Assembly (NCBI GenBank): GCA_036517115.1
Contig: DATDYB010000005.1
Coordinates: 18,970 to 82,969, forward strand
Source of the DNA: Minisyncoccota bacterium
GTDB lineage: Bacteria > Patescibacteriota > Minisyncoccia > Phycocordibacterales > PALSA-1337
Direction: 5' to 3'
Length of the DNA: 64,000 bases
A program made the position numbers and the translations under genes. Under the pieces are notes generated by a model. That model ran no database searches. It had not been told where the DNA came from and saw only the letters and a list, made by a program, of their open reading frames with translations. This document shows, piece after piece, positions 40,232 to 62,055 of the stretch. How positions within the stretch are numbered: the first letter of the stretch is position 1; each line of letters begins with the position of its first letter.

Positions 40232-40374
40232 AACAACCCTCGAAGAAGCCCTCGGGTATTCCTAAAAAGTGGCCGGATAATTTTTCTGGTGAAAAATTTC
40301 CTAGGACTCCGCGCCGCCGCGCTGCGTAGCCACATTTTTAGAAACACCTTCGGGCTTTGTTCTTCGAGGGTTGT
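40232..40374. repeat. intergenic palindromic element D (family 2): imperfect long inverted repeat AACAACCCTCGAAGAA.../...TTCTTCGAGGGTTGTT enclosing A5-GTGGC-[CCGGATAATTTTTCTGGTGAAAAATTTCCTAGGACTCCG-GCGC-CGCC-GCGC-TGCGTAG]-CCAC-T5
   Basis: Read directly. A 39-nt core is identical to element E (61957-62055). The second small hairpin shows stem covariation (GCGC/GCGC here, GGCT/AGCC in E) with the loop CGCC conserved. Confidence 0.6.
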
Positions 40375-40415
40375 TCCTTGCGCTTTACTGCGAGTTCTTT
40401 TTGGGCCGGCGAAGC

Positions 40416-41138
40416 TTATGAATGCATCCTCTTTCTCATCTTCCAGATGTTTTTAAGTTGGCGGATGATTTCGACAAGAGGTGAGACTTTGCTCGCGCGA
40501 AGCTCGTCCCGAACTTCGCGCCAGGTTACGGGTACTTCGAGCACGCGGTATCCTTTTCTGCAAGCGAGAATCATGAGCTCAGTATCCCAGAACCATCCCG
40601 CGTCCTGAGTCTCCGGAATGAGCTCATGAACAATCTTTCTACTGAATGCCTTAAAGCCGCATTGAGCGTCCTTGAAATTCACTCGAAGCACAATTTGGAG
40701 CAAAATATTATAGATCTTTGAAAGTAGTTTACGTTTAAAGCTTCTTTTGGCGTCGGCATATGGCACATACCGTGATCCCGTCACCAGGTCATACCCCTCG
40801 TCGATTTTTGAAACAATGAACGGAAAATCTTTGAGATCGGTAGCAAGGTCGGCATCCATATAGGAGTATATATCGTAGTCCGGTTTTCTCGCCCACGCCT
40901 TTCTGATGGCTATCCCCCGTCCTGCGTCCGACACCCGATCAGTGACAATAGAAGGATATTTTTTCTTTAAATCCTCGGCAATGGAAAACGTCCGGTCACT
41001 CGAGTTGTTATCGAGGATAAGTATCGTCCACGCGTAGCCGGAGAGGTGCGCCTTGGCATGCTCGAGCACCGCAAAAACGCTTTTTTCGAGCACAATTTCC
41101 TCGTTATAGCATGGAATGGTGATGAGAAGTTTTTTCAT
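40416..41138 (-). CDS. GT2-family glycosyltransferase
   Basis: MKKLLITIPCYNEE...ILILDNNSSDRT...YSYMDADLATDL. The ORF track start at 41234 overlaps the upstream gene; the internal Met at about 41138 is the likelier start. Confidence 0.75.
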   Translation of the reverse strand: MKKLLITIPCYNEEIVLEKSVFAVLEHAKAHLSGYAWTILILDNNSSDRTFSIAEDLKKKYPSIVTDRVSDAGRGIAIRKAWARKPDYDIYSYMDADLATDLKDFPFIVSKIDEGYDLVTGSRYVPYADAKRSFKRKLLSKIYNILLQIVLRVNFKDAQCGFKAFSRKIVHELIPETQDAGWFWDTELMILACRKGYRVLEVPVTWREVRDELRASKVSPLVEIIRQLKNIWKMRKRMHS

Positions 41139-42205
41139 GGTTGCATCATGATAGAGGTAATTTTTTCCGCGAATCGCTCCACGCCGTGACAGCGCACCAC
41201 GATCTCGCGCATGTCTTGCCGCAGCGCCGACCACTCCGAGGGCGGCAGGGCATAAAGGGTCAGTATGGCGCGGGAGAGTCCCTCGTAATCCCCTTTTTCA
41301 AAAAAGAGGAGTGGCAAGTATTTTCCAAGCACTGCTTTGTACGCTTCGTTGCACGTCACAACCGGCATAGCGGCTGCCATGGCTTCAAGCCCCGCCTTGT
41401 CGAGACTTCCAGTCAGGCTGGTGTTGATAAACATGTCGCTTGCGTGAAGGTACGGGAGCATGTTCCTGTATTCTACTTTGCCGTGCATGGTTACCACTCC
41501 CTCAAGGCCAAGTGAAGTAATCATCGTCTTGAGACTTCGCTCGTATGCAACTTGCTCAGGCACTCCAGCCGCTCCAACAATCGAGAGTGAGAGCGGCATG
41601 GCATTTTTGATACGTGAGGCCGCCTTTAAAAGCGTAGGGTGGTCTTTGACCGGAGAAAGTCTGCCGACCATGATAAGACGGCTTCGCGAAGCACTGGTGA
41701 CCTCTCTCGGCCTGAAATAATCGGTATCAATGCCCTGCCCCACCACTCGAATTTTTCCACTACGAAGACGGCAACCGCTCGCAGTCGACGTGAAGATACT
41801 TCGGGAGAATAGCGCGGCAATCCGAAGGGTAAACGGGGTATGCCCGTGGGCGTACCACAAAAATACTTTCTTACCCATAAGCATCCAGAAAGGCGCTCCG
41901 AGGAGAACATACATCTGGTTCATATGCACGAAGACCGCGTCGTAGCTATTCCTTTTTCGTACGATATGTCGCAAGAATCTCCACGTATATTTGATTCTTT
42001 TCGTAATTCGTAATTCAAAATTCACCGCTCGTTCTTTCCCTAATGAATGTACCTGTACATTTTCTGGCAATTGATGCTCCCCCTCATACAGGCAAATAAC
42101 CTCCACCCTTTCAACTTTTTTTGAAAACTCTTCCACCCAGCGGTGCACAAAGCCGAGCACGTCGTCATGCATATCCATTTTCTGAGTGATGAATAGGAGT
42201 TTCAT
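41135..42205 (-). CDS. glycosyltransferase family 4
   Basis: MKLLFITQKMDMHDDVLGFVHRW... N-terminal domain and C-terminal ...GLEAMAAAMPVVTCN... The track start 42256 is probably a 17-aa over-extension. Confidence 0.75.
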   Translation of the reverse strand: MKLLFITQKMDMHDDVLGFVHRWVEEFSKKVERVEVICLYEGEHQLPENVQVHSLGKERAVNFELRITKRIKYTWRFLRHIVRKRNSYDAVFVHMNQMYVLLGAPFWMLMGKKVFLWYAHGHTPFTLRIAALFSRSIFTSTASGCRLRSGKIRVVGQGIDTDYFRPREVTSASRSRLIMVGRLSPVKDHPTLLKAASRIKNAMPLSLSIVGAAGVPEQVAYERSLKTMITSLGLEGVVTMHGKVEYRNMLPYLHASDMFINTSLTGSLDKAGLEAMAAAMPVVTCNEAYKAVLGKYLPLLFFEKGDYEGLSRAILTLYALPPSEWSALRQDMREIVVRCHGVERFAEKITSIMMQP

Positions 42206-42206
42206 G

Positions 42207-42662
42207 TTACGCGCGAAAAATGATTTTTTTGTAGACAAAATAACTACCCACGGCAATCGACAAGCCGATAATTATTTGGGATAAAATATACCAGATGCCG
42301 AATCTGTCCACCAGTACGTACATGAGCGCGGTGTTGAGGGCGAGATTGACGAGCGCCACTAAAAAATATTTTCCGACCTGGATATGCATGTCCGTCGTCC
42401 TATCGTCCCTGAATGTCCAAAATTTTTGAAGCGTAAAACTGATGCAAAAAGCAAATACGAACGCGATGATTGCCGAGGTGATGTACCAGATGTCAAGAAC
42501 GTCGGTAAAGACGTACAAGAACCCCACGTCGACAACAGCCGCCGTGCCGCCGGCGATAACGTATTTGATCTTCCGTCGGTGGGTAAAAGCGTGACCGTAG
42601 AAAAAAGGAAACGCCCGTTCAACGGAGCGGAGAAACCGATAGTAGGCTCTTTTGATGCTCAT
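42207..42662 (-). CDS. GtrA-family small membrane protein (polysaccharide synthesis / flippase-associated)
   Basis: ~150 aa with 4 TM. ...KYVIAGGTAAVVDVGFLYVFTDVL... and ...FTLQKFWTFRD... are typical of GtrA-like proteins. Confidence 0.6.
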   Translation of the reverse strand: MSIKRAYYRFLRSVERAFPFFYGHAFTHRRKIKYVIAGGTAAVVDVGFLYVFTDVLDIWYITSAIIAFVFAFCISFTLQKFWTFRDDRTTDMHIQVGKYFLVALVNLALNTALMYVLVDRFGIWYILSQIIIGLSIAVGSYFVYKKIIFRA

Positions 42663-42672
42663 AATGCGACTA

Positions 42673-43845
42673 TTATACCCCATTACCTTTAAGCGCTTCC
42701 CGCCATGACTCTTGGTAGCGGAGCGTGTATGCTTCTTTGGAAATCACGTGCGACCGCGCGGCGCGGTATGCAGCAACGGCGAACGTTTCTCTTTTCTCTT
42801 TGTTTGCGACAAGCTCGAGCAGTGCGCCGACCAGACACTTCGAATCGTTGACACCGCATACGAAGGCGCTCTCGGCGTCAACGAATACCTCTCCCGCGAT
42901 GCCGACATCGGTCGTCACGATGGCGGACCCCGAGAGGGCCGCTTCAACGAGTGACATGCCATATCCTTCGTACGACGAAGTGGAGAGAACGATGTCGGCC
43001 GACGCATAATACGAAGCGAGATTTTCCTGCCAACCTTCAAAGCGAACGGAGTTAGTAAGTCGCAGATTGTGCGTCATGCGCTCTAAAGCGGCAAGCTCCG
43101 AGCCGGAACCGACGATGACAAGACCGGTTTTGGGGAACTTGTTTACAACCGCTGCAAATGCCTGCAAAGCTGTCGCAATATCCTTTTCCGGTTCGAGGCG
43201 CGATGCCATAAGTATGATCGTTTCGAATTCTGGATATTTTTTGCAGAGATCAAAGGACGGCACCTCATTTTCTATTTTTTCTGCATCCACCAAAATCGGA
43301 AGAACAGTAATTTTCTTATCATGAATCTTAAACCATACGTCGTGAATCAACGCACGTTTGATTCGCTCCGATACGACGCGAACGGCATCGGCGCTACGGA
43401 GTACGCGACCGGCGATCATCACCCGCATCATGTTCAACACCGAGTGTTTAACAAAATATGGGCTTAAAAAATCAGTGTGTATTTGAACATGGAGCCGCAC
43501 CTTCCCCGTTTTTTTAAGCGCGCTCCCGACCATGCCGGACTCAAAGGGATCCTGGACCGTGACTAGAGAGTCTCTCTGGTTGAGATTCCTCTCCTTGATT
43601 ATTCTCTTGCCGACGCGAATAGCATCGAAAATGTAGTGCCATCTGTTTCTCGAGTTGGTGGGATAGAGCCAAACATTCTCGGCAATCTTCTCTTCCTTGA
43701 AGGCAGGATCATCAGTCGTGCGCCCCGTATTAAAAACCACAATATGAAGCTCATTTACCAGAGTGCCATAGAGGCGGGTACGCGCTCGTACCGCACTCCC
43801 CTCCTTAAAAATATTTCTGTCGGATCCGATGCTTATTACGTTCAT
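42673..43845 (-). CDS. glycosyltransferase family 4
   Basis: ...LVIVGSGSELAALERMTHNLRLTNSVRFEGW...SSYEGYGMSLVEAALSGSAIVTTDVG... The track start 43890 overlaps the upstream gene; the Met at about 43845 fits. Confidence 0.8.
   Translation of the reverse strand: MNVISIGSDRNIFKEGSAVRARTRLYGTLVNELHIVVFNTGRTTDDPAFKEEKIAENVWLYPTNSRNRWHYIFDAIRVGKRIIKERNLNQRDSLVTVQDPFESGMVGSALKKTGKVRLHVQIHTDFLSPYFVKHSVLNMMRVMIAGRVLRSADAVRVVSERIKRALIHDVWFKIHDKKITVLPILVDAEKIENEVPSFDLCKKYPEFETIILMASRLEPEKDIATALQAFAAVVNKFPKTGLVIVGSGSELAALERMTHNLRLTNSVRFEGWQENLASYYASADIVLSTSSYEGYGMSLVEAALSGSAIVTTDVGIAGEVFVDAESAFVCGVNDSKCLVGALLELVANKEKRETFAVAAYRAARSHVISKEAYTLRYQESWREALKGNGV
43428..43458. promoter_or_regulatory. copy 3 of the AACACCGAGTGTT palindrome motif (ATCATGTTCAACACCGAGTGTTTAACAAAAT), located inside the GT4 coding sequence (encodes ..VKHSVLNMM..)
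   Basis: Read directly. A 23/25-nt match to the intergenic copies is unlikely by chance. Confidence 0.4.
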
Positions 43846-44858
43846 ATTTTTTTGGAAAGATTTATATACTCCTCCGCCATATCGCCCCATGAATGTCTGT
43901 ACGCGAACGTTTCAATATTCTTCACATATTCCCTGTACTCTGCATCATCCACGAGTCGTAGGATTGCTTTGGTAATTGCTTCCTTGTCGAGTGGATCGAC
44001 GAAGATACCAAGATTCTTTACCGTTTCGTATAAGCCGGTGTCCTTGGTGAGGATGAACGGCTTACCCCGCTGTATCGCCTCAAGGATAAGGTTGGGGCAG
44101 ACTTCAGAGAGCGAAGGCAGGATGATCGCATAGGAACTTTTTATTTTTTCCATGAATTTCTCATGCGGCAACTTTTCCGTATCAAGCTCGATCTCAGGGC
44201 GGATTTTTTTCGCTTCCGCAAAAGCTTCCCGAAGCGTTATTTCATTTTTGATAACGATCGAGCGTGTTGAAAAAATGAAGTTCTTCTTCGACGGTGCTTC
44301 CCCGCCAAGCTTCATTCCAACGTAATTTGGAATGATCTGCGTCCGTGTCGGACTAATGGCATAGGGAGTACTCATGATGTTTTTCTGCCATTCGGTCGTA
44401 AAAGCAAGTGCGTTAGTATTTCGGAGCGCGATGCCCATAAGCATTTTGATTATTTTCTCCTTTACGTTCAGTCTGACGCTTTTATCGCCATAAAATCGCG
44501 AGAGTGGGATCATGTGCTTGCTTCGCTCGACATATGATTCCCACAGAAAATCTCCGCCTATCCGCATGATAACTTTCTTTCCGAACAGTTTGGCGGCAAG
44601 GAGTGCCGGAAGCCCCACACTCCACGTATCAAGAGCCAGAATGAACGTGGTGCCCGGTAAACTAAAAACCGTACGGAAAAAATAATAAAGATGGCGTATT
44701 CCTATAGGCAACTTTTTCTCCAGTCTGTAAGAAAGCACGTTTACCTCATATCCCAACGCTCTAAACTCCCTCTCTAAGTTGAAGGCGTATTCCGCCGGCC
44801 CGCCAATATCCGGAGGATAAATACCAGTGGCGATGAGGATTTTCATTGACTTTTCCAT
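43842..44858 (-). CDS. glycosyltransferase family 4
   Basis: 338 aa. MKILIATGIYPPDIGGPAEYAFNLEREFRALGYEV... Confidence 0.75.
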   Translation of the reverse strand: MEKSMKILIATGIYPPDIGGPAEYAFNLEREFRALGYEVNVLSYRLEKKLPIGIRHLYYFFRTVFSLPGTTFILALDTWSVGLPALLAAKLFGKKVIMRIGGDFLWESYVERSKHMIPLSRFYGDKSVRLNVKEKIIKMLMGIALRNTNALAFTTEWQKNIMSTPYAISPTRTQIIPNYVGMKLGGEAPSKKNFIFSTRSIVIKNEITLREAFAEAKKIRPEIELDTEKLPHEKFMEKIKSSYAIILPSLSEVCPNLILEAIQRGKPFILTKDTGLYETVKNLGIFVDPLDKEAITKAILRLVDDAEYREYVKNIETFAYRHSWGDMAEEYINLSKKI

Positions 44859-44867
44859 TGAAACACA

Positions 44868-46076
44868 TCATACAACATCTTTATGGATTGGAAAAACAGG
44901 ATAAAATACTCTTTTCTTCATATCGGCGACAATCACCTTCCAATCATACCGCTCTTCTGCCATTTTCTTGGCGCTCGCTACGATCATTTCACGAAGAAGT
45001 TTTGCCTCAAGAAAAAGTTCCACCTTTTCCGCAATGCTTCGAGGATTGTTCGGCTCGCAGAAAAGTCCGGTAATCCGATCGAACAGAAAATCCGGAATGC
45101 CACCCACCGGTGTTGCGATGACGGGAAGCCCCGCCGCCATCGCTTCGACAAAGGCGCTACCCATGCCTTCAGAGAGCGAGGGTCGAACAAAAACGTCGGC
45201 GAGGGAGAAATATTTCGGAATATCTTTTTGCTCAACGTACCCCAAAAAACGAACCCGGTCCTCCACCCGAAGCGCGTGGGCAAGCGAGCGAAGTTCTCCG
45301 CGAAGTGGGCCATCTCCCAGAATAAGTAGTTTCGTGGTAAGCGGCATCATGGCAACCGCGTGAATGACATCATCTACCGCGTTTTTAGTGACAAGCCGTG
45401 AAGCAGTGACTATTACCTTGTCTTTCTTGCCAATATTCAGGCCTTCTTCAAGGGCCTTTTTTTCATCGCGCGGCACTTTTGCTCCGAAAATCGCGACATC
45501 CACACCATTAGGAATGATCTCACTTCTTCCCTTATACCCCATGTCCCGAGCAAACTGTTCAAGGAATTTTGAGATGGTCTGCACCATATCGGCCTGTTTA
45601 AAAACTTGTGTTAAGAACGGATACACCAGTCGGATACGTTTTCGCTTTTTAATATGTGCTAACGTGTCGCCGTCTTGTAAGGTCAAAATATAGGGAATTT
45701 TTCGATAGAGCAATTTGAAGAAAACTGCGGAGAATCCCATATAGGTCATGATTGACCAGAGGGCATCGAATTTATTTCTGCGGTCCAACAACACCGCTTT
45801 CAGAAACGCCATCAGCGGATAGAGCACTTTATTCAAATACATCGGGAATCGAAGTAAGTCTTCAGGCGTAGGGTTTCTTTTTGAAAATCCGATTCGGTGT
45901 ACGAGAATGTTACCGATGCGTTCCCGCTTTGGGAGAGTGCTGTCGAAACGCAAAGTAATCATCTCAAATTCAATGTCGGAAGACGGTATCCGGTCAGTAA
46001 TCTCTTTAACTGCAAGCTCCGCCCCACCCAGAAAGGGATGGTATGCAAGGGAAAATATAAGTATTCGTTTCGCCAT
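44868..46076 (-). CDS. glycosyltransferase family 4
   Basis: 402 aa. MAKRILIFSLAYHPFLGGAELAV... and ...SEGMGSAFVEAMAAGLPVIATPVGGIPDFL... Confidence 0.8.
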   Translation of the reverse strand: MAKRILIFSLAYHPFLGGAELAVKEITDRIPSSDIEFEMITLRFDSTLPKRERIGNILVHRIGFSKRNPTPEDLLRFPMYLNKVLYPLMAFLKAVLLDRRNKFDALWSIMTYMGFSAVFFKLLYRKIPYILTLQDGDTLAHIKKRKRIRLVYPFLTQVFKQADMVQTISKFLEQFARDMGYKGRSEIIPNGVDVAIFGAKVPRDEKKALEEGLNIGKKDKVIVTASRLVTKNAVDDVIHAVAMMPLTTKLLILGDGPLRGELRSLAHALRVEDRVRFLGYVEQKDIPKYFSLADVFVRPSLSEGMGSAFVEAMAAGLPVIATPVGGIPDFLFDRITGLFCEPNNPRSIAEKVELFLEAKLLREMIVASAKKMAEERYDWKVIVADMKKRVFYPVFPIHKDVV

Positions 46077-46126
46077 TTCTTACAATGATAAGCTAATTTT
46101 CTTACTAAAACAAACTTTTACACATT

Positions 46127-46154
46127 AAAAAATCCCACTTAGTACAAGCGGGAT
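46127..46154 (-). terminator. possible intrinsic terminator (imperfect hairpin + T6 on minus strand) downstream of 46179-47264
   Basis: AAAAAA-TCCCAC...GCGGGAT read on the plus strand. Stem imperfect. Confidence 0.35.
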
Positions 46155-46178
46155 ATTGAGTCTGCAGAGGATACAAAG

Positions 46179-47483: not shown

Positions 47484-49529
47484 TTATTTCTCAATCTTGA
47501 GAACATCTCGGAGCACCGCTTCAGGCACTTCCTTTACCGGGACGGAAGGTTGTATGACTGGTGTGGATTCTGACTTTTTGTTTTCCGGCCGACTCTGAGA
47601 TTTTTCTTGTGGCTTTGGAGATATCGGAGTAGGTCCTGTTGTTATCACCTTCGATAATGCGGCACGGAGATCATTCAAATTTTCTTTGCTAGGGGCTTTA
47701 CCGTCATTTTTTGCAGGTGTTTTAAGTGACTGTAATGACACGGGCTTCGGAGTTGTCACTGGCTGTGTAGGTGATGATGGAGTGGGAGTCGCAACAGATT
47801 TTGGAATTACGGGAGCTACAGTCGGAGTCGGTGTTGCTTTCGCTAAAAGCTTCTGGAGTTCACTTTTAAGCGTGCCTCCTCCTAGATCATCTTTAGGGGG
47901 CTCTCTTCGTTCCAACTGAGCCTGTGGAGTAGGTTCTGCTGCTCTAGGTTGCGAAGGAGCCTGACCTGATGGTTCAGATGGTGTAGCCGGACGCTGTAAA
48001 GGAGCCGCGGGACGTGGAGCTTCTTTAGTTGGTGACGATGAGGATGGTCGTGGAGGTTGTGCTGGAGCACTCGGTCGAGGCTCGCTTTTTTCAAGACGAG
48101 TAGGAGCTGGTGCTGGACGTCCCAGTGCCGGAATTGCCTTGCCATTGAGGCTTGGTCCCACATCGGGACGTTGTCCCGAAGGGACCAGCTTTGAGGAAGA
48201 GACAACGTCGGGAGCGGGACGTTTAGGCGCAGGGATCGAAATGGTCTCATGCCATTTTTTGATTTCTCCTTCGACATCGATTCTCGTCTGCGCAAATTGG
48301 CCGCGCGAAGCATCAAGAATCTCTTTTACATAGGTTACTTCTGGCTCCTTGATGGGCGGCAAGGTGGTGGCGGAAAAAGGATGGGAGCTCACGCCGTCGA
48401 TCATGAGCTTAAGATAAATTTGCGTAAAGCCCAGATTCACCAGATCTTCGGCGGTGAACTGCGGCGCAAATTCTTTTTCCAATACTTCCGCGTCATAGGC
48501 GCCGACACGGAACGTCACCATTGTACCGACGTTGCCGAATACTGCCGCCCGCACTTCCTCTTCCATTTGTTCGATGTACTGATGTGCGATGGTAAGGTTC
48601 AAATTGTACTTTCGAGCCTCTGAGAGAATGTCCGCGAAAGACTCATTAGCAAAAGATTGGAACTCGTCCACATAGAGATAGAAATTCGGTAGTGTTTTTA
48701 GTACCTTTGGCGCCACATCCGCACGACTCATGGCAGCCAAATATATTTTGGTAATGAGCATGCCGCCTAGGAGGTTGGCATTCGACTCCCCCACTCTTCC
48801 CTTGGAAAGGTTGATGATGATAATCTTTTTTTCATCCATCATTTTACGAATGTCAAAGGACGATCGCGGCTGTCCGATCATGTTGCGAATGAGAGCGTTC
48901 GAAGTGAATTGTCCGATCTTGTTTTGGATGGCGGGTGTGGCTTCGGCGGCAAACTTTTCAGTGTATTTTCCGAACTCGTCAATCCAGAATGATTTCACCG
49001 CCGGGTCTGTGACGTTATCAACTACCTTCTTTCGGTATTCCTTGTCGGCGAGCATTTTGTTTACACCTAAGAGCGTCGCGTCAGGATATTCAAGAAGCGC
49101 CAAGAGTGTGTTCGCAAGAATATATTCCATACGGGCCGACCACGCGTCCACCCAAATCTTTTTGAAGGTTGACATGAGCCCTGATACCACAAGATGTCGT
49201 TTATCAGCATCGACTTTTTCGAGCACGTTGAAAGAGACGGGATAATCAAGATCGAAAGGAGCGAAATAGAGTACATCCTTAATGCGCTCTTTCGGGACAT
49301 ACTCGAGCAAAAGATCAGCAGTTTTGCCGTGCGGGTCGATAAAGGCCAATCCTTCGCCGTTTTGAATATCTTGCACTGCCATGTTCTCAAGCAGCGTCGA
49401 TTTACCCATACCGGTTTTGCCGATAACGTAGACATGCTTCGTGCGGTCTTTAGCTTTGATACCAAAAGGAGTTTTTTTGTTTCTTGAATCCGCTTGGCCA
49501 AAATATGTAATTCTATTTTCGTCGATCAT
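47484..49529 (-). CDS. TraD/TraG/VirD4-like (type IV coupling protein family) P-loop ATPase with ~250 aa Pro/Ser/Thr/Ala-rich low-complexity C-terminal tail
   Basis: 681 aa. KHVYVIGKTGMGKSTLLENMAVQDI..GEGLAFIDPHGKTADLL Walker A region. ...FYLYVDEFQSFANE... (TraG-D_C-like DEF motif). ...TIAHQY... Residues ~430-681 are PAPTPS repeats. Confidence 0.55.
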   Translation of the reverse strand: MIDENRITYFGQADSRNKKTPFGIKAKDRTKHVYVIGKTGMGKSTLLENMAVQDIQNGEGLAFIDPHGKTADLLLEYVPKERIKDVLYFAPFDLDYPVSFNVLEKVDADKRHLVVSGLMSTFKKIWVDAWSARMEYILANTLLALLEYPDATLLGVNKMLADKEYRKKVVDNVTDPAVKSFWIDEFGKYTEKFAAEATPAIQNKIGQFTSNALIRNMIGQPRSSFDIRKMMDEKKIIIINLSKGRVGESNANLLGGMLITKIYLAAMSRADVAPKVLKTLPNFYLYVDEFQSFANESFADILSEARKYNLNLTIAHQYIEQMEEEVRAAVFGNVGTMVTFRVGAYDAEVLEKEFAPQFTAEDLVNLGFTQIYLKLMIDGVSSHPFSATTLPPIKEPEVTYVKEILDASRGQFAQTRIDVEGEIKKWHETISIPAPKRPAPDVVSSSKLVPSGQRPDVGPSLNGKAIPALGRPAPAPTRLEKSEPRPSAPAQPPRPSSSSPTKEAPRPAAPLQRPATPSEPSGQAPSQPRAAEPTPQAQLERREPPKDDLGGGTLKSELQKLLAKATPTPTVAPVIPKSVATPTPSSPTQPVTTPKPVSLQSLKTPAKNDGKAPSKENLNDLRAALSKVITTGPTPISPKPQEKSQSRPENKKSESTPVIQPSVPVKEVPEAVLRDVLKIEK

Positions 49530-49571: not shown

Positions 49572-49620
49572 AAAAAGTTAGCCCAGCACATTTGGAATGT
49601 GCTGGGCTGGTTTAGTTTAT
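49572..49620. terminator. bidirectional intrinsic terminator: 13-bp perfect stem AGCCCAGCACATT-TGGA-AATGTGCTGGGCT flanked by A5 upstream and T-rich downstream
   Basis: Read directly. Confidence 0.5.
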
Positions 49621-49621
49621 A

Positions 49622-54904: not shown

Positions 54905-54907
54905 AAT

Positions 54908-54990
54908 ACCAATCTACAAATGGCTACGAATACTCTCGATCTTCACATTTGTAGCCATTCGTATATTTGCAAGGATTAGTATATTAGTAT
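54908..54990 (+). repeat. direct repeat R1 (~83 bp): hairpin CTACAAATGGCTAC...CATTTGTAGCCATT + TTGCAAGGATTAGTATATTAGTAT, upstream of mraY
   Basis: Near-identical copy at 56182-56264, downstream of mraY. Confidence 0.6.
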
Positions 54991-55023
54991 CTATTTACTT
55001 AAGCTATTTTTACTGATAAAGTT

Positions 55024-56160
55024 TTGAGCATGAATCTCACCGTAGCGACCATTCAAGCGCTTTCCTCAACCATCGGTTTTGCCATTCTAAGTGCTGTTGT
55101 AAGCTTCGCGTGGAGCCCTCTTTTGATCTTTCTTCTATATAAATACAACATTACGCGCAGAGCGGAATTTGACCCGACACTTGGTATGGAGTCGCGCAAA
55201 GATAAAGCCCATGTGCCGGTCATGGGAGGGCTTCTCGTTATCATCACTGTCGCCGTCATCACCATCGTTTTTAATTGGGAGAGAAGTTATACATGGGTAC
55301 CAATCGGCGTAATGATCCTTGCTGCCGCTCTGGGTGCCGCGGATGATTTACTCAATATTTTCGGCAACAAGCGCCGGTCTCGAAGCATACGCCAAATTTT
55401 CACCCTAATCCGCGTTCACCACGACTGGAAAATGCGTGTGTGGTATGTACTGACATTCCCCTGGTCCCTTTTCAAGCGCACCTCACTCTGGCTCGGCTCG
55501 CACCCGGGCACCGGCATTCATGTGCACGAAAAACTACTGCTTCAATTCATAGCGGGGGCGATCACGGCGTGGTGGGTCTACTTTAAACTGGGCGAAGATT
55601 GGCAATCGCTCTATGTTCCCTTCCACGGCTTTATCGACATCGGCTGGATCATCATTCCTCTCATTATCGTCGTGGTAATGTTTACCGCTAATGCAGTTAA
55701 TATCGCGGACGGCATGGACGGACTCGCCGGCGGCATGCTCATCCCCACCTTCGGCGCACTCGCTATTTTAAGTTGGACATCAAGCTATCATGAAATGGCA
55801 GTTTTGAATGCCACCGCCATGGGGGCGCTTGTGGCGTACACCTATTTCAATATAAAACCTGCTCGCTTTCAGATGGGCGATGTGGGGTCGCTCGGTCTCG
55901 GTGCGCTCCTCGCCATTAACACCATTGTAATCAATCAACTAATAGTTCTTCCGATTCTCGGCTTCATGTTCTACATCGAGGCAGTGAGCGTGGTGATTCA
56001 GGTATCTGGTCGCTATCTTTTAGGTCGGAGAATTTTCAAAATGGCTCCCATCCATCATCACTTCGAGCTCAAAGGCTGGAGTGAGGAAAAAACCATCATG
56101 CGCTTCTGGATCATTCACCTGGCGGCGGTACTTCTCGGGATGTGGGTAGCGCTTCATTAA
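55024..56160 (+). CDS. mraY: phospho-N-acetylmuramoyl-pentapeptide transferase
   Basis: 378 aa. ...NAVNIADGMDGLAGG... and C-terminal ...FKMAPIHHHFELKGWSEEKTIMRFWI... are MraY hallmarks. TTG at 55024 or ATG at 55030. Confidence 0.85.
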   Translation: MSMNLTVATIQALSSTIGFAILSAVVSFAWSPLLIFLLYKYNITRRAEFDPTLGMESRKDKAHVPVMGGLLVIITVAVITIVFNWERSYTWVPIGVMILAAALGAADDLLNIFGNKRRSRSIRQIFTLIRVHHDWKMRVWYVLTFPWSLFKRTSLWLGSHPGTGIHVHEKLLLQFIAGAITAWWVYFKLGEDWQSLYVPFHGFIDIGWIIIPLIIVVVMFTANAVNIADGMDGLAGGMLIPTFGALAILSWTSSYHEMAVLNATAMGALVAYTYFNIKPARFQMGDVGSLGLGALLAINTIVINQLIVLPILGFMFYIEAVSVVIQVSGRYLLGRRIFKMAPIHHHFELKGWSEEKTIMRFWIIHLAAVLLGMWVALH

Positions 56161-56181
56161 AAACCAAATATACGAATGAGT

Positions 56182-56264
56182 ACCAATCTACAAATGGCTA
56201 CGAATACTCAAGATCTTAACATTTGTAGCCATTTGTAGATTTGCAAGGATTAGTATATTAGTAT
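56182..56264 (+). repeat. direct repeat R2, copy of R1; its 3' end contains the ATG of the next gene
   Basis: ACCAATCTACAAATGGCTACGAATACTC..GATCTT.ACATTTGTAGCCATT.GTA.ATTTGCAAGGATTAGTATATTAGTAT shared with R1. Confidence 0.6.
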
Positions 56265-56949
56265 GTACCTTTTCTGGAACAAAAAAACTATAACCGACTT
56301 CAGTGATTCAAACATAGAGTCGCTCTATAATGACGGCTTCGTTTTCACCCGCCTCGGCAAAGGGGTGATGCATCAGACGAGGAGTGCCCGGATCGATCTT
56401 TCAAAGTTCGAACTCTCGAGCGAAAACCGAAGAATTTTAAAAAAAGTGGAAGGGTTATGTTTAGAGAAACACCCGATCCCCTATTTAGAATACTCTTGGG
56501 AAATTGGAAAAATAGCTAAAGATTTTTATACTTCTCGAGATGCTGATTTTTCCGCAAATAAAATAAAGGAATTACTAACCGATGATACTGAATCGAACTT
56601 TAACATCCTACTCGCCTTTGAAGAGGACACCATCCCCTCCCCATCCTCCCCTTTCCAAGGGGAGGTGGCCGAAGGCCGGAGGGGTTATGCTATCTGCTAC
56701 CAATCCCCAACCCTGCTCCACTACAGCTACCCTTTTTATGATCTCTCCGCCCCCAAAGACACCGGTCTCGGTATGATGCTCAAAGCGATCCTCTGGGCAA
56801 AAGAAAATGGCAAAAAATATTTTTATCTAGGTTCGCTCCAACGTCCTACCGACGTCTACAAGCTCCAATTTGCGGGATTGGAGTGGTTCGACGGAAAGAA
56901 GTGGCAAACCGATCTTGCAACAGCTAAGAAAACTCTCAATGAAAATTAA
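56263..56949 (+). CDS. ATE/Bpt-like (aminoacyl-tRNA-protein transferase C-terminal family, GNAT fold) protein, putative aminoacyl transferase
   Basis: 228 aa. ...TGLGMMLKAILWAKENGKKYFYLGSLQ... resembles the ATE_C/Bpt motif (..G.YS.LW.IE.A...GL.Y.YLGYWI). Confidence 0.4.
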   Translation: MYLFWNKKTITDFSDSNIESLYNDGFVFTRLGKGVMHQTRSARIDLSKFELSSENRRILKKVEGLCLEKHPIPYLEYSWEIGKIAKDFYTSRDADFSANKIKELLTDDTESNFNILLAFEEDTIPSPSSPFQGEVAEGRRGYAICYQSPTLLHYSYPFYDLSAPKDTGLGMMLKAILWAKENGKKYFYLGSLQRPTDVYKLQFAGLEWFDGKKWQTDLATAKKTLNEN

Positions 56950-57358
56950 TCTCGTTGTAGTAGGAAAACAAGAGGCTCTTTTTACTGAAGCAGTGCTTGA
57001 ATTTACGAAGCGTATTAAACGGTACAGCGATTTTGAAGTAGTAGAAACGACTGACGAGAAACTCGGTGAGGTCATACAAAAATACGAACGGATGTTTCTG
57101 CTCGATGAAAAAGGTAAAGAATTTTCAACGATGGAGTTCTCCGACCTCCTACAGAAACAGTTAAACATAGGTGGTAAAAACATGTGCTTCGTCATCGGCG
57201 GAGCGTATGGTTTTAGTGCCGAAGTAAAAGAACAAGCCAACGCCACAATCTCTCTTTCCAAACTGACCTTCCCTCACCAGCTCGTCCGCGTCATTTTCCT
57301 CGAACAGCTCTATCGAGCATTCACTATTTTAAATAACGAGAAGTATCACCATCAATAG
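56939..57358 (+). CDS. rlmH: 23S rRNA (pseudouridine1915-N3)-methyltransferase (SPOUT)
   Basis: MKINLVVVGKQEALFTEAVLEFTKRIKRY...CFVIGGAYGFSAEV... is typical of RlmH. The track start 56870 is over-extended. Confidence 0.8.
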   Translation: MKINLVVVGKQEALFTEAVLEFTKRIKRYSDFEVVETTDEKLGEVIQKYERMFLLDEKGKEFSTMEFSDLLQKQLNIGGKNMCFVIGGAYGFSAEVKEQANATISLSKLTFPHQLVRVIFLEQLYRAFTILNNEKYHHQ

Positions 57359-57443
57359 AGATTAGTATATCAATGGTTAGAAATTGGATACCGAAGAATA
57401 AAAAACTCGCGACGGATGGGCCCGCGCGAATCATACACATGTG

Positions 57444-57821
57444 CTATTTTAGTAACGCGGTCTCTAAAGAAACCTGCTGCCAATCACCCGAATTGATCCC
57501 TGAGGTGACAGTCCATCCCTGTGTTTCAAATCTTTGTGTAACCAAAAGAACCGCCTTCTTTTCGTTCGAAAGACACCGTTTCTTGTCCCTCTCGGCATAG
57601 TAATCGTACGGAACCTTCGACTCGAATTCACATACGATCTTGTCATCAGACATCTCAAGCTCGCAAGCACGAAGTTTTTTATCAAGCGAATTCTCAATAT
57701 CCCAAGCTCTTTGAGCTATAAGAAATTCATCCTGCGCTTGTTCCACCTCTTTTTTCCTCTCTGCTTCAGTGGACAGCTTGGCGGTTAGTGCTTCTAAGAT
57801 TGTTTTTGCTGGCATAGCCAT
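57444..57821 (-). CDS. hypothetical coiled-coil protein
   Basis: 125 aa. Charged/helical, no motif. Confidence 0.4.
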   Translation of the reverse strand: MAMPAKTILEALTAKLSTEAERKKEVEQAQDEFLIAQRAWDIENSLDKKLRACELEMSDDKIVCEFESKVPYDYYAERDKKRCLSNEKKAVLLVTQRFETQGWTVTSGINSGDWQQVSLETALLK

Positions 57822-57953
57822 ACTTTTTATCCTTTCATCTAAGCATGAATATAATACGAATATTTATAATGTCAACTCCTATATTTCACACCCATTTTCC
57901 GTTAAACTGAGTAAGTATTTTTACTTTATGGACTTTTCGACTTTATAGACTTT

Positions 57954-59369
57954 ATGACTTCTCCCAAACATATTCACATAGTAGGTATTTGCGGTGTGGG
58001 TACCGGGGCGCTTGCTGTAGCGCTTAAAAACGCCGGTTACAAGGTCACCGGCAGCGACAAAGGATTTTTCCCTCCCGTTTCAACCGCCCTCGAACAAGTG
58101 GGTGTAGAATTTTACGCTGGCTGGCATCCGGAAAAAATGGGCAAACCCGATTTTGTTGTGGCCGGAGGATCAGGCACTTCCCTATCCAATCCAGAAGTTG
58201 TGCGTGCAAAAGAATTGGGTATCCCCATTCAATCATTTGCGCAAGCGGTTGGAGAATTTATCGTCAAAGAAGGAAATTCGATCGTGGTCGCAGGAACGTG
58301 GGGAAAGAGTAGTTCTACAGCAATACTTTCGTATATTCTAGAGCAGGTGGGGTTAAACCCAGGCTATTTCTTTGGAGGACTCGCCACCTCCCTTCAAAGT
58401 GGGAAAATCGGTTCAGGAAATATCAGTGTGGTTGAAGGAGACGAATACCAAGCAGCTATTTATGATAAAAAACCAAAGTTTGCATATTACAAACCTACTC
58501 ACCTGCTGTTGACCGCCGTCTCGTGGGATCATGCAGATCTGTACCCAACCGAAGATGCATACTTCAATACTTTTAAAAAATTAGTTAACTCCATTCCTCG
58601 CGACGGAAAAATTATAGCGAGCACCGATGATGATGGGGTAAAAAGCATCCTCGGTCTTGCGGGAGATGAACACTACGATAAACGTATTGCTTATGGAAAA
58701 GAGGAGTGTTCTTTCCCCTTCTATAGATATCAGAATGTGCAGCAAAGCAAAGACGGGATCACGTTCGAGATCGTCGATCTTGAAGTCAAGACGCATACTA
58801 TCCATTCACCCATGCTTGGTGAATTTCAGGCGGAAAATATCACCGGTTGCTTTGCCATGGCACGAGAGATCGGTATTGAGCCGAGGGCGATCATCAAAGC
58901 TATCGCCGAATTCAAGGGCATGAAACGCAGACTGGAAAAACGGCACGAAGGAGACATCACCGTCATCGACGACATCGCCCATTCGCCGGAAAAAGCCGCT
59001 TCTGTACTAGCTACGCTCCGAAACATCTACCAAGGAAAAATTTTCGTCGTCTTCGAGCCGAATATCGGCGGACGGCAAAAAGAAGCCGTATCGAAATATG
59101 ACAACGCATTCAAAAACGCCAATGAGATAATCATTCCACGACTTACAAAACTTAAAGTTTCAGACGATGAGGACAAGCGACCACTCGAAGGCGACGAACT
59201 TACGAAAGTAATATCAAAAACCCATCCGAACACCTACTACATCGACAACGATGACACCCTCATTCACCACATCACAGCTCACGCAAAGAAAGGTGACGTC
59301 ATCGCCTTCCTAGGATCACATGGATTTAGGGGGATGATTGAAGAAACGATTAAGACATTAAATCGTTAG
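57954..59369 (+). CDS. Mur ligase family protein, Mpl/MurC-like (UDP-N-acetylmuramate:peptide or L-Ala ligase)
   Basis: 471 aa. HIHIVGICGVGTGALAVALKNAGYKVTGSD...VAGTWGKSSSTAIL...VVEGDEY...SWDHADLY closely follows the Mpl/MurC pattern. Confidence 0.8.
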   Translation: MTSPKHIHIVGICGVGTGALAVALKNAGYKVTGSDKGFFPPVSTALEQVGVEFYAGWHPEKMGKPDFVVAGGSGTSLSNPEVVRAKELGIPIQSFAQAVGEFIVKEGNSIVVAGTWGKSSSTAILSYILEQVGLNPGYFFGGLATSLQSGKIGSGNISVVEGDEYQAAIYDKKPKFAYYKPTHLLLTAVSWDHADLYPTEDAYFNTFKKLVNSIPRDGKIIASTDDDGVKSILGLAGDEHYDKRIAYGKEECSFPFYRYQNVQQSKDGITFEIVDLEVKTHTIHSPMLGEFQAENITGCFAMAREIGIEPRAIIKAIAEFKGMKRRLEKRHEGDITVIDDIAHSPEKAASVLATLRNIYQGKIFVVFEPNIGGRQKEAVSKYDNAFKNANEIIIPRLTKLKVSDDEDKRPLEGDELTKVISKTHPNTYYIDNDDTLIHHITAHAKKGDVIAFLGSHGFRGMIEETIKTLNR

Positions 59370-59442
59370 ACGTGATATAACTGGATCCCCGCATCCGCGA
59401 GGATGACAGAAAATATAGTCGGCTTCGCCTCTTTATTTTCTG

Positions 59443-59607
59443 TCACTTCCCTTCATCAACAATCTCGGCCTCAATCTTTTCGTTCGAAATTTCTTTGATC
59501 AAAAGTGAGATACCACAAGTGTCACATTCAACGACTTGGTCTTTTGCCAGGTTGGGATACTGTTCAAGACTGACGTCGTTTTTACATTCAGGACAAATTA
59601 ATTGCAT
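59443..59607 (-). CDS. small Cys4 zinc-ribbon protein, LysW/ArgW-like (amino-group carrier-like), 54 aa
   Basis: Hand-translated (below the ORF track cutoff): MQLICPECKNDVSLEQYPNLAKDQVVECDTCGISLLIKEISNEKIEAEIVDEGK. CPEC-(19)-CDTCG spacing and an acidic tail resemble LysW. It lacks the canonical terminal EDWGE. Confidence 0.45.
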   Translation of the reverse strand: MQLICPECKNDVSLEQYPNLAKDQVVECDTCGISLLIKEISNEKIEAEIVDEGK

Positions 59608-59744
59608 GGGTGTTAGCTTCTAGCTGTAAGCTGTTAGACTGATAAATCTACAGTCATCATTCTAATGCAATGACTTCAATAAAACAAATATTTGGGAACT
59701 AAAAGCTAGTAGCTAAAAGCTAACAGCTTCGCTACAATACAACT

Positions 59745-60626
59745 ATGACTCCACAAGAAGAACGACCTAAACTTACTCTCGCTTTAAGCGCCACGAATCT
59801 CGGTATTGTGTATTTCAAACGTGAAGATCTACACCCCTACAAGTCGCACAAAGGGCGGTCAATCCCCTTTATGATCGACTGGTACAAGGATAAGGGTTCA
59901 AAGGATTTTGTCATCTCTTCCTCAGGCAATGCGGCGCTTGCAGCACTCCTCTATATTCAAGAATGGAACAGCAAGAACACCGACGACGCTCTTTCCCTGA
60001 CCATTTTCGTAGGAGAAAAAATCGCCCAAGCAAAATTCGATCTTTTGAAAAGCACTGCTAAAGACTCTCATGTCTCTGTCACACAAACCACCAGACCCCA
60101 GCAGAGCGCCTTTGAAGCAAGTAAACGGGGGAAAACACTCCTACGTCAGTCAACAGACGAAGTGGCGCTTCTAGGATACGCTACTCTCGCGGAAGAGCTC
60201 GGGCGAATTCAAAATCTCGAGGCGATATTCATAGCTACTTCATCCGGCACCACCGCAGAGGCCCTACATGATTTTTTTAAAAAAGGAGGGGTGTTCCCTC
60301 AGATTCATATTGTGCAAACTACCGGATGTAACCCAATCGCTCGTGAATTCGAACCCTCCCCTCTACAGGAAATTTCTTTTGCCGACGCTATTGTCGACCG
60401 CACCGCCCTTCGAAAAGAAAAGGTGATTAACGCCGTTTCAGCATCAAAAGGTTTTGGCTGGATAGTCTCCAATCAGGAAATCGCGGACGCGGTCAACCTC
60501 GTAGAGCAACATGAGGGGTTAAAAATTTCTCCGAACGGCGCTCTTTCGGTAGCAGGACTTACAAAAGCCCTCTCAAAAAACTGGCAGTGGAAGGGAGCGG
60601 TGGTCTGCGTCATCACTGGAAGGTGA
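59745..60626 (+). CDS. PLP-dependent fold-type II enzyme (threonine synthase / cysteine synthase superfamily)
   Basis: 293 aa. ...VYFKREDLHPYKSHKGRS... (PLP-Lys motif, cf. K.E..NPTGSFKDRG) and ...VISSSGNAALAAL... Confidence 0.7.
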   Translation: MTPQEERPKLTLALSATNLGIVYFKREDLHPYKSHKGRSIPFMIDWYKDKGSKDFVISSSGNAALAALLYIQEWNSKNTDDALSLTIFVGEKIAQAKFDLLKSTAKDSHVSVTQTTRPQQSAFEASKRGKTLLRQSTDEVALLGYATLAEELGRIQNLEAIFIATSSGTTAEALHDFFKKGGVFPQIHIVQTTGCNPIAREFEPSPLQEISFADAIVDRTALRKEKVINAVSASKGFGWIVSNQEIADAVNLVEQHEGLKISPNGALSVAGLTKALSKNWQWKGAVVCVITGR

Positions 60627-61934
60627 TCACTTCATTAGTGCATCAAACGCCTCAATGCGGCTCGTCACGTCCCGTGACTGTTCTTCGGGGCCGAATGACG
60701 GACTAAAGAGGATCACATCTCCTGCGCGCGAACTATCAAAAGCTTTCTTGACCGCATCAGCAAGACCCTCACTGTGCACATGGGTAACACCCTTGCAGTC
60801 AAGCAGATTTTTATGAATCTTAATAGTCCCTGTGCCCGGCACCGCGATAACGGTAGTCGCGTATTGGTTGAGATGTGCCAAGAGAGGTGCCATGTCTTCC
60901 CCTACATCCTTGCCACCCATTATCAGAACGGTGTTTTTATTAACGGAAACCGTACGGAGCGCTCCTAGCGTAGAGTGGGGGGTGACTGACGCCCCATCGT
61001 TATATATTTTCCTTTCTTTTACCATTCCTTTGTATTCCAAACGTCCAGAAAGAGCCCTACAATTCTTAAGTGCCTCTTCAATGATGTCTTCACTGATTTT
61101 AAAAATATGGGCTGTCTCCACAGCACAAGCAACGTCGTCTTTCATCAACTCCCCCTCAAAAAGCGCGGACCACGACAGAGGTAGCATTTGCCGCGACGCT
61201 TTCATGGGGCGACTTCGGATCTTTGTGTCGAGCGCCCGTATCACCTCTTCGGGTGCCACAAAATAGTTGTTGGACGATTGGAATGCATACAGCGCATGAG
61301 TTTCGTCAGCTCCCAACGCTGGACACACCGACACATAAGGACTCATTTTCATGGAAGCAAAATCACGGAGTTGTGTAAACGAAAGTTCGATGATGACAAT
61401 ATCGCCTGAAGCAATGTTCTCAAGCAAGGAAATGAGGCCGGTGTTTTCATAATTCGTTACACAGAAAATATTTTTACGAAGGATGGTTTTTCCTCTTTCG
61501 AGTATATCCCGAATCAGTAACGCTGTGGTTGTTTTGCCTGCACCTCCACCTACCCCAATGACAATAACCGGAGGGGAGAGTTTAGTGAATAATAACTCAG
61601 GTGTTTCTACCTGCACGTTATTGTGTTCGATGGCCTTTACAAGAATGTTGGGGAACGTTACATCCCGCGGCTTTATAATAAGATTCGCGCTGGTGAATAG
61701 TTCAAGATCATAGTTCCCGAAGGAATAATTAAGCCTACCCACCTTCTCTTCCTCCGTCATGAGCTCAAGTGCTGCGATAGCTTTTTCTAAATCAGCCTTT
61801 TTGCCGACATCCGCTATGGTGACGTCAGCTCCGCATGCAACTAAAAACTTTATATCCCCAACTAAGGAGGTGTGGGAACGAAGACCAGTAACCACGACTC
61901 TTTTGCCACTAAAATATTCCCGAGCATTATTCAT
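60627..61934 (-). CDS. murD: UDP-N-acetylmuramoylalanine--D-glutamate ligase
   Basis: 435 aa. N-terminal ...GKRVVVTGLRSHTSLVGDIKFLVACGADVTIAD... and Mur ligase central domain ...IGVGGGAGKTTTALL... Confidence 0.85.
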   Translation of the reverse strand: MNNAREYFSGKRVVVTGLRSHTSLVGDIKFLVACGADVTIADVGKKADLEKAIAALELMTEEEKVGRLNYSFGNYDLELFTSANLIIKPRDVTFPNILVKAIEHNNVQVETPELLFTKLSPPVIVIGVGGGAGKTTTALLIRDILERGKTILRKNIFCVTNYENTGLISLLENIASGDIVIIELSFTQLRDFASMKMSPYVSVCPALGADETHALYAFQSSNNYFVAPEEVIRALDTKIRSRPMKASRQMLPLSWSALFEGELMKDDVACAVETAHIFKISEDIIEEALKNCRALSGRLEYKGMVKERKIYNDGASVTPHSTLGALRTVSVNKNTVLIMGGKDVGEDMAPLLAHLNQYATTVIAVPGTGTIKIHKNLLDCKGVTHVHSEGLADAVKKAFDSSRAGDVILFSPSFGPEEQSRDVTSRIEAFDALMK

Positions 61935-61956
61935 ACGAGGTCAATCATAACACACT

Positions 61957-62055
61957 CACCATTCATCAAAAAAGAGACCGGATAATTTTTCTGGTGAAAA
62001 ATTTCCTAGGACTCCGGCTCGCCAGCCTGCGTAGTCTCTTTTTTGATGAATGGTT
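61957..62055. repeat. intergenic palindromic element E (family 2): CACCATTCATC-AAAAAA-GAGAC-[CCGGATAATTTTTCTGGTGAAAAATTTCCTAGGACTCCG-GCTCGCCAGCC-TGCGTA]-GTCTC-TTTTTT-GATGAATGG
   Basis: Read directly. 20-bp perfect outer inverted repeat. Core shared with element D. Confidence 0.6.

Follow-up and report, generated by a model that had tools for sequence, protein, structure and literature searches.

The 64,000-nt stretch of metagenomic DNA analysed here (the window; positions 18,970 to 82,969 of the forward strand of contig DATDYB010000005.1, assembly GCA_036517115.1, from a Minisyncoccota bacterium) carries two copies, W1 and W2, of an intergenic palindromic element, family 2, whose centre is invariant and whose paired arms differ from copy to copy. 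Eight copies with an identical 39-nt core occur in the ~190 kb of host genome covered by our count, each ~100–150 bp long. All of them share one fold, a three-way junction in which a long outer stem, carrying an A-run and a T-run, meets an AT-rich hairpin that contains a bulged T (P2) and a 4-bp hairpin with a CGNC loop (P3). The multiple copies, their occurrence in both orientations, their non-synteny between relatives, their nesting, their shuffled modules, the short flanking repeats and the assembly breaks at the element are together typical of dispersed, probably mobile palindromic DNA. We therefore favour, with middling confidence, the reading that family 2 is a mobile (selfish) repeat resembling repetitive extragenic palindromic (REP) sequences, enterobacterial repetitive intergenic consensus (ERIC) sequences and miniature inverted-repeat transposable elements (MITEs), and that its conserved core would be the recognition module of a candidate enzyme. 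Two facts weigh most with us: the centre is invariant, and the arms are perfectly complementary yet copy-specific. We infer mobility, a DNA-level nature of the structure and a recognising enzyme.

The original prediction described two elements with a common 39-nt core, and both are present: the 39-mer CCGGATAATTTTTCTGGTGAAAAATTTCCTAGGACTCCG matches the window exactly twice, each time on the + strand, with no further match at up to three mismatches and none in 100 shuffles. The AT-rich hairpin of the core forms as predicted, with an additional bulged T that had gone unmentioned, and the second hairpin (GCGC-CGCC-GCGC in W1, GGCT-CGCC-AGCC in W2), followed by TGCGTAG, is likewise found in the sequence. 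The compensatory 5-bp clamp (G-TGGC/GCCA-C in W1 vs G-AGAC/GTCT-C in W2, with the A-run on one side and the T-run on the other) and the outer inverted repeats agree with the earlier description, and the layout held in general, except that W1 has an extra A (GCCAC-A-TTTTT) and the palindrome runs past the ends first proposed, in shells. RNA folding z-scores of W1 and W2 against shuffles range from -7.6 to -9.9, DNA folding z-scores, obtained for the W2 copy (61958-62054) only, are -8.3 and -9.9, and the folding energy of W1 is -77.6 kcal/mol on the - strand vs -67.0 kcal/mol on the + strand. The folding, the shuffles and the eight copies uphold the claim that these are not chance palindromes and establish a genuine repeat family.

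Beyond the window, a search with the exact core 22-mer recovered five further copies, on additional contigs of this organism within a single groundwater metagenome, and a covariance model added the eighth (L107a; L107 20102-20200), ~8.5 kb past the left end of the window. The neighbours of these copies are unrelated housekeeping genes. Five copies are oriented antisense to the flanking genes and two sense, and one (L003) lies between the divergent genes rpsP and rnr, upstream of the -10 boxes of both; six of the eight start 10–70 nt 3' of the upstream stop codon. A GC-skew check of orientation against replication direction gave four contigs negative and two short loci positive. The core 22-mer had no match in GTDB species representatives or in viral contigs, BLAST of the element against phage and plasmid collections returned no match, and no report matching the element was found in the literature on repeats of the candidate phyla radiation (CPR). 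Rfam over the whole window at gathering thresholds gave 0 matches, and its permissive mode on W1 and W2 gave only noise (E > 2), so that the check proposed beforehand assigned no known motif.

The covariation is far wider than the two window copies reveal. In a hand-edited alignment of seven copies, after removal of a single bulge apiece from W1, L003 and L005 and of a surplus loop base from L002, and with the insertion-disrupted P3 of L005 masked with N, two-sided changes occur in 15 of 36 pairs and one-sided variation in none; the differences among the additional copies are thus compensatory and not random. Standard pairs make up 96.8% of the pair cells, a single cell is G·U, and all covariation measures lie beyond 500 of 500 shuffles and every slid control. 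An independent RNAalifold run on the cross-genome alignment returned the same three-way junction, with 12 of 24 pairs changed on both sides and none on one side. Every change is strictly from one Watson-Crick pair to another. This near absence of wobble pairs argues for pairing at the level of DNA or for arms copied from one another, and the pattern fits a DNA palindrome or copied arms at least as well as an RNA. Template switching is a documented process by which perfect hairpin stems can arise and persist with no selection acting on the individual pairs (PMC8794818). The claim that the covariation marks a selected RNA structure is therefore not supported, given also the two orientations, the absence of the element from the corresponding sites of relatives, the shuffled modules and the nesting.

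Variation within the fold is modular. P2 is invariant within the host genome, and there are two clamps and two P3 stems, of which all four combinations are present. Between copies only the inner A-run and the clamp are conserved in the arms; the outer 10-nt arms are mutually related (ACCATTCATC, GCCATTCTCC, AGCATTCTCC and others) and differ at 3–8 of 10 positions, and the outermost shells are unrelated (W1 vs L005). Mismatches are confined to the lineage of W1, L005 and L107a, where two A-C oppositions on the + strand correspond to G·U on the - strand. L005 additionally has an ~80-nt unstructured insertion in P3.

Nesting is seen at several copies. W1 and L107a have at least five concentric palindromic shells in common, all outer shells included, and a second copy of the W1 composite unit, again with its outer shells, lies at L107 20074-20224. 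The origin of the W1 outer arms by insertion into the loop of a local terminator was consequently rejected, as L107a has the same outer shells. A larger palindromic repeat holds the L003 copy in its central loop; where this repeat occurs a second time (L097 5040-5250), the loop is a different one. This larger repeat, family X, is ~200 nt long and occurs twice, 4.6 kb apart (L097 5040-5250 and L097 9690-9970, the latter being the L003 locus), with one loop holding the family 2 element and the other an unrelated hairpin.

Proteins of the host, an uncultivated organism, place it in Patescibacteria (CPR), within Parcubacteria/Paceibacterota, and a protein identical to its RNase R is labelled Candidatus Paceibacterota in NCBI. 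CPR/Patescibacteria genomes are tiny and gene-dense and probably poor in mobile DNA. In reverse complement, the window corresponds to a segment of a 96.9-kb metagenome contig (ENA ERZ4903055 k141_3461162), and the same organism has been assembled in several JGI, ENA and SRA samples. Among MurD homologues one relative reaches 92% amino acid identity and the next closest ~33% (Nomurabacteria, Minisyncoccia); RNase R is 70% identical to a Taylorbacteria protein and 53–56% to Zambryskibacteria proteins. The W2 sequence is identical across five independent assemblies, and two independent assemblies break within the element (L014 and L102), as is expected at a repeat.

A covariance model run over 14 Parcubacteria loci fetched via RNase R matched twice, both times in one Zambryskibacteria metagenome-assembled genome (MAG; L019, JACOVQ010000007.1), which brings the tally to eight host copies, the two in the window included, and two diverged homologues in that one MAG. 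Homologue h1 scored 32 bits (E ~1e-6) and homologue h2 14 bits. In h1, P2 reads CAG[T]TTTTTCT-TGCT-AGAAAAACTG and P3 GCCT-CGAC-AGGC; in h2, P2 reads CGAG[T]ATTTTTC-TGCT-GAAAAATCTCG and P3 GGCT-CGTC-AGCC; TCCG follows in both. Each keeps the bulged T, has compensatory basal P2 pairs and folds to the same three-way junction. A structural descriptor (P2 with the bulged T, P3 as NNNN-CGNC-NNNN, then TNCG) found only the family 2 copies and these two homologues in 877 kb, of which ~600 kb were Bacteroidota control loci. The presence of the same fold in both homologues of this distant genome shows that the core fold is older than the host genome and is not a strain-private accident.

The position of the element differs between relatives. 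The relative with 92% amino acid identity (L011) lacks the element at its murD site and keeps the terminator and the TGnTATGAT promoter; at the W2 position it has an unrelated spacer with a different hairpin. Homologue h1 occupies the smc/rnr spacer, at a distance of 11 nt from the smc stop codon, and a terminator hairpin of its own, 20 bp long and separate from h1, comes after it. Both L104 and L105 carry h1. Relatives with 77% amino acid identity (L106 and L108) lack it at this site, and so do other Zambryskibacteria loci and the smc/rnr spacer of the window organism itself. A 19-nt duplication of the tRNA-Leu 3' end flanks homologue h2, and the same tRNA segment recurs, inverted, as one of the h2 arms. 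The surrounding region (L019 2330-2540) runs from tRNA-Leu(tag) through a hairpin and h2 to a 19–22-nt duplicate of the tRNA 3' end including CCA, which looks like an att-type duplication around an insert of only ~100 nt.

Short direct repeats flank several elements. Perfect repeats of 6–7 bp occur at h1 (GCTCCGC twice, 7 bp), L003 (TCGCTC twice), L001 (GCGCTC twice) and a copy of the sister family 1 at 23022-23088 (GCTCCAC twice, 7 bp), the repeat at h2 being 19 nt; a long flanking duplication of this kind was found in only one of ten copies. No empty target site was recovered. The flanks of the host copies all resemble one motif, CGCTC ... TCGCT, with a flank identity of 5.0/6 on average within a copy vs 4.7/6 between copies, and in W1 and L107a this motif sits inside a larger repeated unit. 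The idea of a palindromic target, GTAAAGCGCTTTAC, whose empty sites would lie elsewhere was rejected for lack of enrichment (4 matches vs 2.7 expected).

Under the favoured interpretation as a mobile repeat, the invariant P2/P3 core would serve as the recognition module for a candidate trans-acting protein that copies or moves the element. All that would be required of the arms is pairing, probably within a cruciform or a hairpin of single-stranded DNA. Their sequence could therefore drift, and complementarity would be preserved either because propagation selects for it or because one arm is recopied from its partner by template switching. The copies that survive would be those placed where a compact genome tolerates them, namely immediately behind stop codons, ahead of promoters and within the apical loops of other hairpins, and we propose that insertion into such loops produces the onion-like nested palindromes. 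The bracket of A-run, stem and T-run might act incidentally as a bidirectional terminator-like hairpin, which would be a by-product.

Several observations weigh against this interpretation. The flanking direct repeats cannot be cleanly called as target-site duplications, because they resemble one shared motif that lies partly inside a repeated unit. Whereas MITEs have conserved terminal repeats, the outermost arms of family 2 vary from copy to copy. The same copies are present in all assemblies of the population and no insertion polymorphism was seen; nor is there a clean pair of filled and empty sites, since in both relatives the whole spacer differs and not the element alone. No insertion sequence (IS), transposase or RAYT gene was found among the annotated genes of the loci examined (~190 kb of genome, no Y1_Tnp match), and no mobilising enzyme was found in the sequence reached. 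The reverse transcriptase of a diversity-generating retroelement (DGR) in the window and the XerC/D-like recombinase near L005 were considered as candidates and set aside, with nothing beyond proximity to link either to the element. Finally, the fold and its bulged T are kept between genomes whose RNase R proteins are ~54% identical, as a functional RNA would show.

Features of the window copies, the neighbours of the eight host copies, and related repeats (positions refer to the window unless a locus is named)
Feature	Position	Strand	Remarks
W1 whole nested palindrome	40232..40375	+	further weak shells to ~40221-40392
W1 39-nt core	40273..40311	+	identical in 8/8 copies of host genome
W1 hairpin P2	40275..40301	+	GGA[T]AATTTTTC, loop TGGT, GAAAAATTTCC; 11 bp with bulged T
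W1 hairpin P3	40311..40322	+	GCGC, loop CGCC, GCGC; then TGCGTA at 40323-40328
W1 left bracket	40263..40273	+	TAAAAAG and clamp TGGC; partner is 40329-40340
W1 right bracket	40329..40340	+	clamp GCCAC, extra A, TTTTTA
W1 outer inverted repeat	40232-40247 / 40360-40375		16 bp
W2 whole element	61958..62054	+	21-bp perfect outer stem around 55-nt core region
W2 39-nt core	61978..62016	+	exact 39-mer match
W2 hairpin P2	61980..62006	+	
W2 hairpin P3	62016..62027	+	GGCT, loop CGCC, AGCC; then TGCGTA at 62028-62033
W2 left arm	61958..61977	+	ACCATTCATC, AAAAAAG, AGA
W2 right arm	62034..62054	+	GTCTC, TTTTTT, GATGAATGGT
W2 outer perfect stem	61958-61978 / 62034-62054		21 bp
Canonical intrinsic terminator of upstream 499-aa gene	62149-62172	-	outside the element; kept in relative L011
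Neighbours of W1			two GT2 glycosyltransferases
Neighbours of W2			499-aa gene, murD-like gene
Neighbours of L107a			214-aa gene, secA
Neighbours of L001			small ORFs beside TraG-like ATPase
Neighbours of L002			gene after tsf, tRNA-Thr
Neighbours of L003			rpsP, rnr
Neighbours of L004			pilC, pilin-like gene
Neighbour of L005			M23 peptidase
Family 1 copy	14304..14407	+	same scaffold, CGCT-type flanks, other core
Family 1 copy	23022..23088	+	6 nt after stop codon of DGR reverse transcriptase gene
Family 1-type scaffold	4903..5065	+	121-nt interior
Family 1 copy	L107 17584-17652		
Palindrome AGGTGTCAACCTG / CAGGTTGACACCT	L019 9712-9742; L021 4975-5003, 5668-5696; L024 5941-5967		

The fold conserved across genera keeps a functional structured RNA as a serious rival, which we nevertheless regard as doubtful. 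Family 2 would then be a multi-copy small RNA gene or an orientation-independent cis module, whose junction (the bulged U of P2, the CGNC loop of P3 and the conserved joining strands) binds a protein or is catalytic, the outer stem just closing the fold. In its favour, h1 and h2 retain, with compensatory changes, the fold together with its bulged T and the consensus of the P3 loop, the descriptor is selective for these elements over 877 kb, and the core is 100% conserved while the stems vary. The A-C mismatches in the arms of W1 and L005 become G·U on the - strand, where the fold is also more stable in W1, the bracket of A-run, stem and U-run could end a transcript either way, and the RNase III encoded in the host genome would process stems of at least 20 bp. 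Against an RNA, however, G·U and one-sided changes are nearly absent in ~250 pair cells, the copies lie in both orientations relative to genes and one is upstream of both neighbouring promoters, and there is no conserved promoter at a fixed distance, the spacing of the TAAAA(G/T) flank motif ranging from 0 to 6 nt. The copies are not syntenic between relatives, P3 is destroyed by the insertion in L005, and no Rfam family matches.

It is also conceivable, though unlikely in our judgement, that the three-way junction represents a Parcubacteria-wide undescribed element, either a new class of multi-copy structured RNA or a hairpin mobile element that moves via a folded single-stranded intermediate. 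In the mobile variant the arms would be regenerated by snap-back or template-switch synthesis, and the mobiliser would be an Xer-like recombinase or a reverse transcriptase and not a classical transposase. A hairpin mobile element with templated arms would explain the conserved centre, the copy-specific yet fully complementary arms, the 6-, 7- and 19-nt duplications and the insertion into hairpin loops.

Punctuation beneficial to the host, in which a bidirectional terminator, an mRNA 3'-end stabiliser or an RNase III hairpin was repeatedly recruited, is another improbable account. The placement of six of the eight copies shortly after a stop codon, and of h1 after that of smc, agrees with it, as do the presence of RNase III and the use of the same A-run, stem and T-run by ordinary host terminators (e.g. 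L006 5639-5670, AGCAAAAAACCGCC..GGCGGTTTTTTGCT). Yet W2 comes after a conserved canonical terminator and just upstream of the -10 box of the next gene, L003 lies between divergent genes and h1 has a separate terminator hairpin behind it. The proposal that W2 is not needed as a terminator was thus correct, the canonical minus-strand terminator lying outside the element. Termination explains neither the invariant 39-nt core nor arms that extend beyond the T-run, the clamp beside the T-run has just 5 bp and closes a 55-nt multiloop, and a consensus terminator scan made no call on the element.

Least probable of these, in our view quite unlikely, is a DNA site for a site-specific recombinase or a DNA-binding protein, that is, a recombination module and not a transposon. 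The P2 duplex is an imperfect palindrome (11–12-bp arms, 4-bp centre) reminiscent of Xer/dif-like or attC-like sites, its bulged base resembles the extrahelical bases of attC and IS608 hairpins, the 19-nt duplication of the tRNA-Leu 3' end at h2 is a signature of tyrosine-recombinase integration, and an XerC/D-like gene lies 540 nt from the L005 copy. That gene, however, looks like an ordinary housekeeping gene with its own promoter and terminator, and a small ORF separates it from the element; the attC core sites GTTRRRY/RYYYAAC are absent, the long flanking duplication is an exception among the ten copies, and many identical sites in one small chromosome would be a hazard.

Other candidates were rejected. 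An integron attC site is contradicted by the absence, on reading, of the core sites RYYYAAC ... GTTRRRY and by neighbours that are housekeeping genes and not cassettes. For a hammerhead or other three-way-junction ribozyme, the junction strands are C / UAGGACUCC / UGCGUA vs the required CUGAUGA ... GAAA ... UH, there is no Rfam match, and the hammerhead-like CUGGUGA of the P2 loop is not kept in h1. A small peptide gene is untenable, as the element contains no conserved ORF: the only open frame crossing the core (PDNFSGEKFPRTP..) has no conserved start and is broken by a 1-nt indel in L002 and by the insertion in L005. A 5'-untranslated-region regulator of the downstream gene was rejected because the extended -10 box TGTTATGAT, which is kept in L011, lies between the element and the ATG, and because other copies are reversed or far from start codons.

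The surroundings of W2 illustrate this last point. W1 and W2 lie 19–24 nt ahead of start codons, and W2, beyond its separate conserved terminator, abuts the extended -10 box TGTTATGAT just before the ATG of the murD-like gene. The murD-like mRNA is probably leaderless, which would place W2 outside the transcript. Extended -10 boxes of the form TGnTAnnnT (TGTTATGAT, TGCTATAGT) occur 7–10 nt before start codons without a Shine-Dalgarno sequence and are kept in relatives (window 61935-61955; L003 1340-1368; L096 95-118), a pattern suggestive of widespread leaderless mRNAs in this lineage. The motif CCCAGCAC underlies long perfect hairpins at two places (window 49575-49613; L011 2259-2299), the latter at the W2 position in the relative with 92% identity.

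Family 1 shares with family 2 the scaffold arm-AAAAAAG...CTTTTTT-arm' and CGCT-type flanks, around a different core, (T)GTGCGCTCCGGGCCG..GGCC..GTCT(T)AC, whose variants differ by insertions in the central loop; the arms of the family 2 copy L001 resemble those of family 1. A GDP-mannose-dehydratase-like ORF (14383..15405, - strand) reads through the flank and right arm of one family 1 element (window 14383-14410) and stops inside it, its last ~9 codons coming from the repeat. Within the VirD4/TraD-like ORF 47484..49529, ~105 nt (window 48120-48221) are ~80% identical to the interior of the 4903-5065 element, which is either a repeat embedded in frame in a coding region or an ORF call crossing an element. 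Another repeat family, inverted pairs of AATCTACAAATGGCTAC(GAAT), flanks the MraY-like gene region (window 54911-54967 and 56167-56259), and the perfect palindrome (A)AGGTGTCAACCTG / CAGGTTGACACCT(T) recurs intergenically in several Zambryskibacteria and Parcubacteria MAGs. The window also contains a complete DGR (23094-25659, - strand), with its reverse transcriptase ORF at 23094..24152, a template repeat at 24488-24615 and a variable repeat at 24931-25058, the latter at the 3' end of the target ORF (24901..25659, 252 aa). Over their 128 nt the two repeats share 88% identity, and all 16 internal mismatches fall at adenines of the template repeat.

Nested palindromic repeats, possibly in tens of copies per genome and in two distant Parcubacteria lineages, would be an unreported layer of CPR genome dynamics. 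Family 2 is also a practical cause of assembly breaks in MAGs. For motif discovery, our results urge caution, in that abundant compensatory changes flanking a conserved loop are, taken alone, insufficient evidence of a selected RNA, since DNA palindromes and templated copying of arms give the same signal. If the core is the recognition site of an enzyme or a functional RNA, the descriptor makes that directly testable.

Among known systems, bidirectional intrinsic terminators resemble family 2 in their A-run, stem and T-run, which form the bracket present in the element, in their position after stop codons and in their activity on either strand, which family 2 might share. Unlike them, family 2 closes a conserved 55-nt branched core with its stem, its arms pair beyond the A- and T-runs, and two of the eight copies (W2 and L003) sit where no terminator is needed. 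Folded single-strand sites, such as attC, the end hairpins of IS200/IS605 elements (IS608) and the attP hairpin of the CTX phage used by XerCD, have in common with family 2 a structure that is conserved in place of the arm sequence and an extrahelical or bulged base within a hairpin, and the strict Watson-Crick pairing of family 2 is what is expected of a DNA hairpin. Family 2 differs from them in having no attC R/L boxes, TTAC/TCAA cleavage sites or dif arms, and no adjacent integrase, TnpA or cassette array.

ERIC sequences (also known as intergenic repeat units, IRU) and Correia elements (CREE/NEMIS) are MITE-like bacterial repeats of 100–150 bp that are transcribed in either orientation, and Correia hairpins are RNase III substrates able to act as terminators. 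Family 2 is of similar length (~100–150 bp), is likewise a long imperfect intergenic palindrome with internal insertions at fixed points, and shares with MITEs in general its small size, its non-coding nature and its many dispersed copies (eight). In Correia elements and other MITEs, however, the terminal inverted repeats are conserved and the target duplication is fixed (TA), whereas the termini of family 2 differ between copies and its flanks are 6–7-bp CGCT-type or ambiguous. Terminal inverted repeats shared between copies and with a parent IS were not found, and there was no IS in the loci examined.

The REP, bacterial interspersed mosaic element (BIME) and REPIN repeats of Proteobacteria are mobilised by RAYT (TnpA-REP) transposases (PMC3116915, PMC3337134, PMC3733652), whereas the host of family 2 is a CPR bacterium and no RAYT gene was seen in the available sequence. 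A REP is defined as an imperfect palindrome of 20–40 nt with GTAG or CGTC at its foot and conserved arms (PMC3733652). Family 2 does not have such tagged, conserved arms: GTAG occurs in host copies only and lies 3' of P3 and not 5', and it is absent from h1 (GTTAG) and h2. The arrangement is in fact reversed, as the REPIN arms (the REP sequences) are conserved around a variable spacer, and family 2 has an invariant centre between variable arms. In other respects the two are alike: both are short non-coding extragenic palindromes, present in many copies mostly just downstream of genes and in both orientations, with mosaic or nested layouts and hairpin pairing kept by paired changes, and for both, side effects on termination and mRNA stability have been proposed. 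In REPINs, selection for propagation can itself maintain such hairpins (PMC3116915).

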